Of a stretch of DNA of 49,804 nucleotides, positions 30,901 through 33,900 are shown one piece after another. The stretch lies in the sequence record NZ_KJ588780.1. The stretch is one strand, 5' to 3'. Each line of letters begins with the position of its first letter. Position 1 is the first letter of the stretch. Source of the stretch: a plasmid. Position numbers: made by a program.

Positions 30901-33900
30901 GGTGATCGAGACGGCATCGCCGACCGCGATGCGCGTCAAGCGCCGGGCCGTGGCCTGGTCGATGGGCATAACCATGACCTCATCACCTCGTTTCAAGAGG
31001 GCCAGCGCCTGGCCCTCGATAGTCCTGGTGCCCTGGAACGTGAGCGCACCATCACCGGCAGTATATCGGGAATGCTTCGGTATATCGAAACCTTTTAGGC
31101 GCTTTGCCTCGCGTTCGGCGATGTACTTGTCGGCGGCGGCGACGCCCGGCGGCGTCTGGCCTACTCCTGTTCCTGGCCGAGAAATTCCCCGTCGCAGTGC
31201 GTGATCTGGTTGGGTTCCTTGCTGCTCCACGTGACGAGGAACATCACGCGGCAATAGCACTTCACTTCCGCCGGCGATGCGAACCACACCGAGTTCGGAC
31301 AGTGCTCGCAAACGGTGCTGGCTTTGGGGCGGCGGTTTTCTTCCAAGGCGTCCAACGTCGGGCTTCCGGTGGACGGTGGCGGCGTGAAGGCCGGCGTCGG
31401 CGCGGTCGCCTCGGCCGGCGGCTGGCCGGCCGTCGCCTGCTCGGGCGACGGCTGCGGCTCCGGTAGCGTGCTGGTCGGCAGCGGGCCGCTGTCCAGGGCC
31501 GCCAGCGCCGCGTCCAGTTCGTCCTCGATGCTCTGGTCTTTCGGTTCGCTCATGGGTGTTCTCCTTGTTCAAAAGCGCCTGCCGCCGGCTCTCAAGAGCC
31601 GGATCGGTGAAGGTGATGGGTAGCTGGGAATCGACGGCGGCGCGGATCATCTGCGCCTTGAACTCCACCGTGCCGTTGACGGTGATGCGGTTGCCGTAGC
31701 GTTGCATCGCCAGGCGCAGGGCTTCTTGCAGCCCTTCGCGCGTGGCCTCGCGGGAGACTTGCAGGCGGTCACCGTCATCGCGCACGGCGCTCATGCCGGC
31801 GCGGAAGATGATCGTCCCCTTTCTTCGTGATGTTGTCCACCGCCGGCGCGTGGCCGGGCTTCGCCTGGCCCTCGCCCCGGATGGTGTTGCCCTTGAGGCC
31901 CTGGGCCGCCTCGCGGGCGCGCAGGGCGGCCAGGGCGTCGGCGCCGCCGTGCTGCGCCTCCTTCTTGAGCCAGTCGGCCCACGTGCGCCGGCTGTGCTCG
32001 GCGTAGAGGGCCGTGCGCTCCTGCTGGAACTGCTTGTTGATCGCCTGGATTTCGCTGCGCAGGGCCTTGCTCGCCTGGGCGTACAGCAGCTTCTTGTTCG
32101 CGCGGCCCTCGCCGACCACCTTAATCGTGGCGCGGCGCAGGCGGTTCGACCTCTTGGCCGCCTCGATCAGCCGATCCTTGCGATGCCGGGCGCGCTCCAG
32201 GGCCTGGGCGCGCGCCGTGGTCAAGCTCTGCTGCTCGGCCTTGTACTTCGCGTACAGCTCCACGGTGTTGACGCGAAGGCGGATGGGGTCTTTGCGGTAC
32301 TGCCGCTTCGCGGTGGTTTGCGCCTGCCGTTCGGGCGAAGCCTCGAACGGGCCAAGCCGCGCCTCCAGGCTCGGCTTGGAAAGGTCGCGGGCTACTGTGC
32401 TCGCCTTCACCATCGTTCCGTCGCCGGCCTCGAACACGAGGCCATTGGCGCGGACGCGCAGCTCCATTCCGTTGTCGCGCATGACCTGGTGCAGTTCCTG
32501 CCAGGACTGCGCGCCCTTGATCTCGTCCAGGCACTCGCGCTTGATCCAGCCGACCAGGCTTTCAACGCCGGCATGCCGCTCCATGTCGGCGGCCCGGCCC
32601 TCCGCGCCGCGCTTGCGCGGCTCGTGGTTGTCGCGCTCCAGGCCGTAGTCGCGCTCCAGGGCCGTGCAGAGTTCCGCCAGCGCCCGGTGCGGGTAGTACG
32701 GCTCGTGCATCGTGTGCCGCGTCGGGTGAATCTTGTTGATGGCGATGTGGATGTGCAGGTTGTCGGTGTCGTTGTGGACGGCACTGATTCGCTGATGCTC
32801 GCCATAACCCAGCCCGACGCAGATGCGTTCCTCAATCGCGCGCAAGGTGTCGGCGCTGGGCTGCTCGCCGGCCCGGAAGCTGACGATCAGGTGGTAGGTC
32901 TTGTCGCCCTTCGCGCGGGTGTTCGTGTGCTGGGTCGCCAGCACCTCCGTGATGGCGTCCTGGATGGAACCGGCTTCGCAGTTCGTCGCCTGCACGTGGC
33001 CCAGCCGGTGGTCTTTGCTTTGGGCGTCGGTGATGTAGTTCGCCAGGCCCGCGAAGTCGCTCTTGCCAAGCGAGCGCATCGGCACGTGCTTGGCGATCAT
33101 GGCCGCCCCTCCGGCTTTTTAGCCGCTAAAGAAGTCAAGGCTCGGCCCTCGGCTGAACCACGGCCTTCATGATCCGGCTCATTTCGTCCTGGGTGGCCTC
33201 GATCCGGCCCAGCAGGGCCAGGATGGTCGCCTCGCCGAACTGGAGCGTTCGCACGTCATCGGTCAGCCAGAGCTTGAGCAGGCCGCCAAGGCGGCCAAGG
33301 TCGCCGTTGACGCGCACCAGCTCGCGCACGTGCTGGTAGTCCATGACGCCCTTGATCTGGTAGCCCTGGCCCACGTCGCGCAGATAGCGCGCCACGCTGA
33401 CGCCCGCCCTCTTGGCGTTCGCCTCGATCTCGTCTTTCTCTTCGGGGAACACCGGCACCCGCAGGTGCTGCCGCCGCCGGCGGCCGTGTTCCTTTTCGTC
33501 GTTCTCCATGCCTCGCCTCGTCTCTCATGCCGGCGGTAGCCGGCTGCCTCGCAGAGCAGGATGACCCGTTGAGCGCCCCCGGCGCGAATAAGGGACAGTG
33601 AAGATAGATAACCGGCTCGCCGGTTAGCTAACTTCACACATCCTGCCCGCCTTACGGCGTTAATAACACCAAGGAAAGTCTACACCAGCCATTACGATTT
33701 ATCCGCAACTATCGCGCTATCAGGCCGCAAAAGCAGCAACGGATATAGCGAAACCCGCCACAATGGCCCATAATGCCGCTATCGAAGCGTGCCAATGCAC
33801 GCCGATAGCGGACTTTTTGCGTTTCCGTAGCGCCGCTTAGTAGCGTTACATTTGCGATGAGAGGATTAGATGGACGAACACGATGCCAAAGACCTACCCC

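Follow-up and report, generated by a model that had tools for sequence, protein, structure and literature searches.

An interrupted traI relaxase gene in the record of the blaIMP-1 plasmid pA22732-IMP is most likely a sequence error

The traI gene of the IncP-1beta plasmid pA22732-IMP is split into two open reading frames (ORFs) in the deposited sequence, and this interruption is very probably due to an error made during assembly or finishing of the record and is not a property of the plasmid itself. TraI is the relaxase, which nicks oriT and pilots the strand. The extra base that breaks the gene was found in no other sequence record, single extra bases of the same kind occur in traC and kfrA of the same record, and the plasmid DNA that was sequenced came from cells that had just received the plasmid by conjugation.

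The deposited traI gene is split by one extra base

Translation of the minus strand of the window, i.e. of the whole stretch of 49,804 bp that was analysed (GC content 65.069%), yielded traI as two ORFs of 441 aa and 311 aa. The same two-frame split had been described in the first-pass annotation of this DNA. The features of the traI region are as follows.

31775..33100, minus strand: 5' part of traI, 441 aa; residues 1-428 of native TraI, then 13 residues from the wrong frame up to a TGA stop codon
30859..31794, minus strand: 3' part of traI, 311 aa; its start is Met436 of native TraI
31820..31822, minus strand: site of the extra base; TTT on the plus strand (AAA on the gene strand) versus TT (AA) in all relatives
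31161..31553, minus strand: traH, 130 aa, intact; read in another frame within the 3' half of traI, downstream of the frameshift

The C-terminal end of the 441-aa ORF reads DNITKKGDDHLPRRHERRAR and is followed by the stop codon, and the downstream frame carries on as GTIIFRAGMSAVRDDGDRLQ, which is part of the 311-aa ORF. The N-terminus of the latter is MSAVRDDGDRLQ, with GTIIFRAGMSAV read in the same frame just 5' of its ATG codon, and residues 429-435 are the sole residues of native TraI that are missing from both ORFs. No Shine-Dalgarno-like sequence was detected at a useful distance from this ATG codon, the closest G-rich stretch being located 20 nt upstream.

A megablast search of the window positions 30800-33200 against PLSDB returned about 70 records with at least 99% identity, and in every top match 2401 bases of the query were aligned with 2400 bases of the record. 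The position of the additional base was deduced from a base-level alignment with ten relatives, comprising pDTC28, pB8 and eight other plasmids. At this site, GAAGAAGGGGACG is found in all relatives and GAAGAAAGGGGACG in the window, which corresponds to the extension of an AA run to AAA. On the gene strand, the pB8 sequence CGAAGAA-GGGGACG is aligned with CGAAGAAAGGGGACG of the window, and the insertion is located after nt 1280 of traI, in codon 427. Removal of one T at position 31820 gave a TraI protein of 746 aa with 100% identity to the TraI proteins of both pB8 and pDTC28, as expected from the earlier proposal that deletion of a single base rejoins the two parts. This proposal had, however, placed the extra base in the G run of the sequence AAAGGGG, and a GGG to GGGG insertion was rejected on the basis of the ten-relative alignment, in which the gap falls into the A run and the adjacent GGGG is the wild-type state. 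Deletion of a G residue restores the same protein, but it is the less parsimonious repair because it leaves a synonymous AAA-for-AAG difference that is unseen in the relatives. For the same reason, an inspection of sequencing reads for GGG versus GGGG would address the wrong run, since the wild type already has GGGG.

The interrupted gene is an ordinary IncP-1beta traI

Pfam assigned the Relaxase domain (PF03432) to residues 22-154 of TraI, with an E-value of 2.3e-33 and a score of 115.7 bits (cutoff, 24.6), and the TraI_middle domain (PF22863) to residues 167-254, within the 441-aa ORF. The LPD7 (PF18821) and TraI-like_C (PF22287) domains were assigned to the 311-aa ORF, whereas all four domains are found in one protein of 746 aa in the intact TraI of pB8. 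The gene of the window thus shows the N-terminal MobA/VirD2-type relaxase (HUH nuclease) domain that is characteristic of the MOBP relaxases, along with the accessory domains of the IncP proteins in their canonical order but distributed over two ORFs. The frame break lies inside the LPD7 match, which covers residues 421-509 of intact TraI, and not in a linker.

The domain order is the same as in the TraI proteins of pB8 (CAI10778.1) and pDTC28 (ALZ45604.1) and in the RefSeq protein WP_011342947.1. The genetic context is likewise that of a Tra1 region, with traJ located upstream, traH nested in traI and traG overlapping the 3' end of traI; this order is shared with the annotated plasmids pB8 and pDTC28, with which the region is collinear and in which traH is annotated at the homologous position. 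In contrast to the TraI coding regions of pB8 and pDTC28, the deposited ORF of the window is broken after residue 428 by the additional base, and the uninterrupted ORF of about 746 aa is therefore replaced by two parts that are separated at codon 428/429. Apart from this interruption, the gene is a regular traI of the IncP-1beta type (MOBP, TraI/MobA(P) family), and the alignment, the Pfam domains and the restored protein all agree with the initial assignment of the gene to the IncP TraI proteins. A structure search found no solved structure of an IncP TraI protein.

The insertion is restricted to a single record

The insertion was present in none of the 80 PLSDB plasmids that matched a 91-nt sequence covering the site: all 80 records were identical at 90 of the 91 positions, and none at 100%. 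An insertion-specific 31-mer had no exact match in 185,579 species genomes or in the JGI metagenome collection, whereas the corresponding wild-type 30-mer, which served as positive control, was detected in 20 contigs (nine from genomes and eleven from metagenomes). An exact-protein lookup revealed no gene on record for the 441-aa product. Judged from these sequence comparisons, the insertion allele of traI is private to the window.

The window matches the published plasmid pA22732-IMP

The circular IncP-1beta plasmid pDTC28 is collinear with the entire window, and the alignment wraps exactly at trfA; the window therefore represents a complete plasmid. Between traC and parA it matches the description of pA22732-IMP from Achromobacter xylosoxidans, with the following features of the resistance region.

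17496-21132: Tn402-like class 1 integron without 3'-CS
19917..20930, plus strand: intI1 of the class 1 integron
18167..18907, minus strand: blaIMP-1 of the class 1 integron

The genes aac(6')-Il (= aacA7) and orfE are located between intI1 and blaIMP-1, and the integron is bounded by 5-bp ATGCT repeats (the complement of AGCAT) at positions 17491 and 21133. The published plasmid pA22732-IMP (KJ588780) was described as a circular IncP-1beta plasmid of 49,804 bp with a GC content of 65.07% (Chen et al., Sci Rep 2014, PMC4245530). Its integron, with the order intI1-aacA7-orfE-blaIMP-1-truncated tniA, is inserted between traC and parA and has AGCAT on both sides, while trfA is adjoined by a Tn501-like mer module (PMC4245530). 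Accordingly, the window agrees with the text of the paper in length, GC content, IncP-1beta backbone, mer module, integron and AGCAT duplication, and on the basis of these matches it is taken to be pA22732-IMP. No difference from the published description was noticed; the three frameshifts of the window are not mentioned there (PMC4245530). The paper reports no frameshift, pseudogene or transfer frequency, and its supplement contains nothing on the transfer frequency or on traI (PMC4245530).

The publication also specifies the origin of the sequence data. A blaIMP-positive transconjugant of E. coli EC600 was obtained by filter mating for 12-18 h with selection, and the plasmid DNA was prepared from this EC600 transconjugant and sequenced on an Illumina HiSeq 2500 instrument at 160-fold coverage (PMC4245530). 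The reads were assembled with Velvet, and gaps were closed by combinatorial PCR and Sanger sequencing (PMC4245530). The authors termed the plasmid conjugative and its backbone highly conserved (PMC4245530).

Two further private insertions are located in traC and kfrA

Comparison of the window with the ten relatives revealed three private single-base insertions, at positions 24240, 31820 and 37728, and no private deletion. The two insertions located outside of traI are given below.

24240..24242, minus strand: insertion in traC (gene 21579..25926), TT to TTT on the plus strand, at about codon 563; absent from 4/4 relatives that cover the site
37728..37730, minus strand: insertion in kfrA (gene 36849..37881), GG to GGG on the plus strand, at about codon 52; absent from 6/6 relatives that cover the site

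The insertion in traC splits this primase gene into ORFs of 589 aa and 970 aa, and removal of the extra base restored a TraC protein of 1448 aa that is identical to that of pDTC28. The kfrA gene is out of frame past approximately 52 codons, and its repair by the same means yielded a 343-aa KfrA protein, again identical to the pDTC28 homolog. All three insertions are of the same type, i.e. the extension of a 2-base run to a 3-base run, and within the sequence itself it is those in traC and kfrA, which the first-pass annotation had not noted, that speak most strongly for a technical origin of the traI interruption. The local GC content, considered as a possible hint at gap-closure segments and determined over 200 bp around the three sites, corresponds to the percentiles 56, 87 and 87.

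The frequency of such events was compared between the window and its relatives by counting isolated coding single-base indels only, after post hoc curation of the comparable indel columns. With this definition, three coding frameshifts in 47 kb of the window contrast with a single one in the 201 kb that were aligned from the relatives (Fisher p=0.023), and the ratio of private indels to private substitutions is 3:6 in the window versus 1:43 in the relatives (p=0.013). Without curation, the Fisher test on private indel columns showed no significant difference (p=0.84); the columns counted there included a divergent intergenic patch of pJP4, an integron boundary and the insertion of the window itself, for which the gap had been placed differently. 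The pJP4 patch is located between ssb and trbA (positions 1576-1693 of the window) and comprises many indel columns relative to the window and the other relatives; it gives the impression of a segment that was exchanged or rearranged and not of scattered errors.

With respect to the panel, the window has six private substitutions, at positions 2348, 6995, 14377, 46222, 47049 and 49710. They are located between trbA and trbB, in trbF (a synonymous change), in trbO (Met to Thr; both codons were translated by hand) and at three sites of the mer module, of which the latter are possibly not truly private, as only two to three relatives cover them.

The 362 runs of at least four bases in the window are all devoid of indels relative to the relatives, and the three insertions extend 2-base runs, so that a typical miscall in a long homopolymer is not supported as the origin of the insertions. 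The first-pass annotation had considered a typical homopolymer miscall as one explanation of the split gene. An error is favoured by the present analysis as well, but the site is not a typical homopolymer: the run grew from two to three bases, in a sequence obtained by Illumina sequencing and Velvet assembly with PCR and Sanger finishing.

Sequence error versus mutation

According to the preferred explanation, a spurious A would have been added to the AA run at nt 1280 of traI during assembly or finishing, and the same process would have added one base each to 2-base runs of traC and kfrA. We infer that all three insertions are technical errors. The actual plasmid then most likely encodes a normal IncP-1beta TraI relaxase of 746 aa. 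As in R751 and pB8, this protein would act at oriT together with TraJ, TraH and TraK, and the strand that it has nicked would be passed on to TraG and to the type IV secretion system Trb. This explanation is favoured because the plasmid had just conjugated and because unique extra bases of this kind are also present in traC and kfrA. The requirement for traI is illustrated by an RK2-derived plasmid with a deletion of traI and traH, for which a conjugation ratio of 0.00 was obtained with both clones (PMC10521675 Table S3). Since traI is needed for the transfer of IncP plasmids and the sequenced plasmid had just been transferred, a broken traI gene is not expected in this DNA. The phenotype of a traI loss of function, i.e. 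the lack of self-transfer, is not what the paper describes, as the plasmid was obtained by conjugation, albeit at an unreported frequency (PMC4245530). The earlier statement that the plasmid is probably transfer-deficient is therefore in conflict with the use of a conjugal transconjugant as the source of the sequenced DNA (PMC4245530).

The main alternative is that the frameshift is real. In this case, the plasmid would encode a truncated relaxase, consisting of residues 1-428 of TraI and 13 junk residues, and possibly a poorly initiated fragment covering residues 436-746. The traC and kfrA frameshifts would be real as well, and a decaying IncP-1beta plasmid would have been transferred rarely or leakily by means of the N-terminal catalytic fragment, or with help provided in trans in the Achromobacter donor. 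We consider this unlikely, even though the deposited sequence does read as frameshifted, Illumina sequencing at 160-fold coverage makes few indel errors and runs that change from two to three bases are not the classic sites of miscalls. The fragment of residues 1-428 retains the entire catalytic Relaxase domain as well as TraI_middle, and very rare transfer events of a crippled plasmid would be recoverable by a selective filter mating of 12-18 h for which no frequency was reported (PMC4245530). Data from a deletion library of an RK2-derived plasmid are in part compatible with such a plasmid: deletions of traC were tolerated, with conjugation ratios of 0.75 and 5.98, those of kfrA resulted in ratios of 0.00 and 0.22, and one of two clones with a 360-nt deletion in the 3' half of traI conjugated at 0.24 of the wild-type level (PMC10521675 Table S3). 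A search of the available literature for experiments on C-terminal truncations of IncP TraI revealed nothing direct, this deletion library being the nearest source (PMC10521675).

A real frameshift nevertheless has to be reconciled with three independent private frameshifts in a backbone that is otherwise 99.97% identical, whereas none was present in about 100 other sequences, and with the fact that the authors termed pA22732-IMP conjugative and commented on no broken gene (PMC4245530). Complementation in trans would require that the donor contained an almost identical TraI of the IncP-1 type, given the general specificity of relaxases for their oriT, and plasmid incompatibility makes this unlikely. 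An origin of the mutations after the transfer is very improbable too: assuming a generous rate of 1e-9 per bp per generation and 200 generations, the probability that at least three new mutations arise in 50 kb while the transconjugant grows out is about 2e-7. It is also highly improbable that the AAA allele is real and that pA22732-IMP conjugates with a TraI protein cut after residue 428, which would mean that the C-terminal 40% of the protein, including LPD7 and TraI-like_C, is either dispensable or supplied as a separate polypeptide starting at Met436.

A real but bypassed extra base is hardly credible. Full-length TraI might be synthesized by a +1 ribosomal frameshift at the sequence AAA-G, in which the tRNA-Lys slips from the AAA codon onto AAG, which overlaps with it, or the two halves might form a split relaxase. 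The pairing of the tRNA-Lys would be kept during this slip and the correct downstream frame would be entered, and the small gap of seven residues between the two ORFs is in accordance with a split protein. The putative recoding site is, however, not conserved, as neither the 80 PLSDB records nor any genome or metagenome contig contained it and the 20 contigs with a match carry the in-frame wild type. Moreover, the A site holds neither a stop codon nor a rare codon, and an upstream stimulator as generally known from bacterial +1 frameshift sites, for instance that of prfB, is lacking. The position of the break within the LPD7 match and the lack of a usable Shine-Dalgarno sequence at the downstream ATG codon also argue against a bypass, and the same kind of rescue would be required independently for traC and kfrA. 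Taken as a whole, the interpretation given in the first-pass annotation is partly supported, with its error branch favoured and its transfer-deficiency branch disfavoured, and the interruption of traI is most probably absent from the plasmid itself.

Interrupted genes in other records of IncP-1beta plasmids

Broken copies of conserved genes were also observed in other records. Within 2.2 kb, the traI gene of pSR8 from Aminobacter (NZ_CP062120.1) shows 14 gap positions, which are almost exclusively deletions in 2-base runs, a pattern that is typical of long-read errors; broken traI genes in databases can therefore be of technical origin. A plasmid of Vibrio anguillarum NB10-GFP (CP076070.1) shows a single 1-bp deletion at nt 1170 of traI, and both this plasmid and pSR8 are without a traI coding sequence in the PLSDB table. 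In pMH0621-02Tc (LC623884.1), a private 1-bp deletion is present in merA at the equivalent of window position 48039, and MerA is annotated as two overlapping 'hypothetical proteins'. These three records resemble the window in that single-base indels in short runs break conserved genes in one record each. They differ from it in having deletions, whereas the window has insertions only, and pSR8 in addition contains many indels per gene (14 gap positions in traI), whereas in the window three genes carry a single indel each.

Implications for the pA22732-IMP record

If the frameshift were true, a clinical plasmid encoding the blaIMP-1 carbapenemase would be a transfer-crippled dead end, or the IncP TraI protein would tolerate the loss or the splitting off of its C-terminal part. 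If it is an artefact, as favoured here, the finding is a matter of data quality, and the record of pA22732-IMP appears to hold three spurious frameshifts, in traC, traI and kfrA. Automated pipelines would call these three genes pseudogenes, and surveys based on plasmid typing could score the relaxase as defective. The analysis accordingly adds nothing new to the biology of relaxases, and its practical value is that three positions in the public sequence of a carbapenemase plasmid are flagged as probably erroneous.
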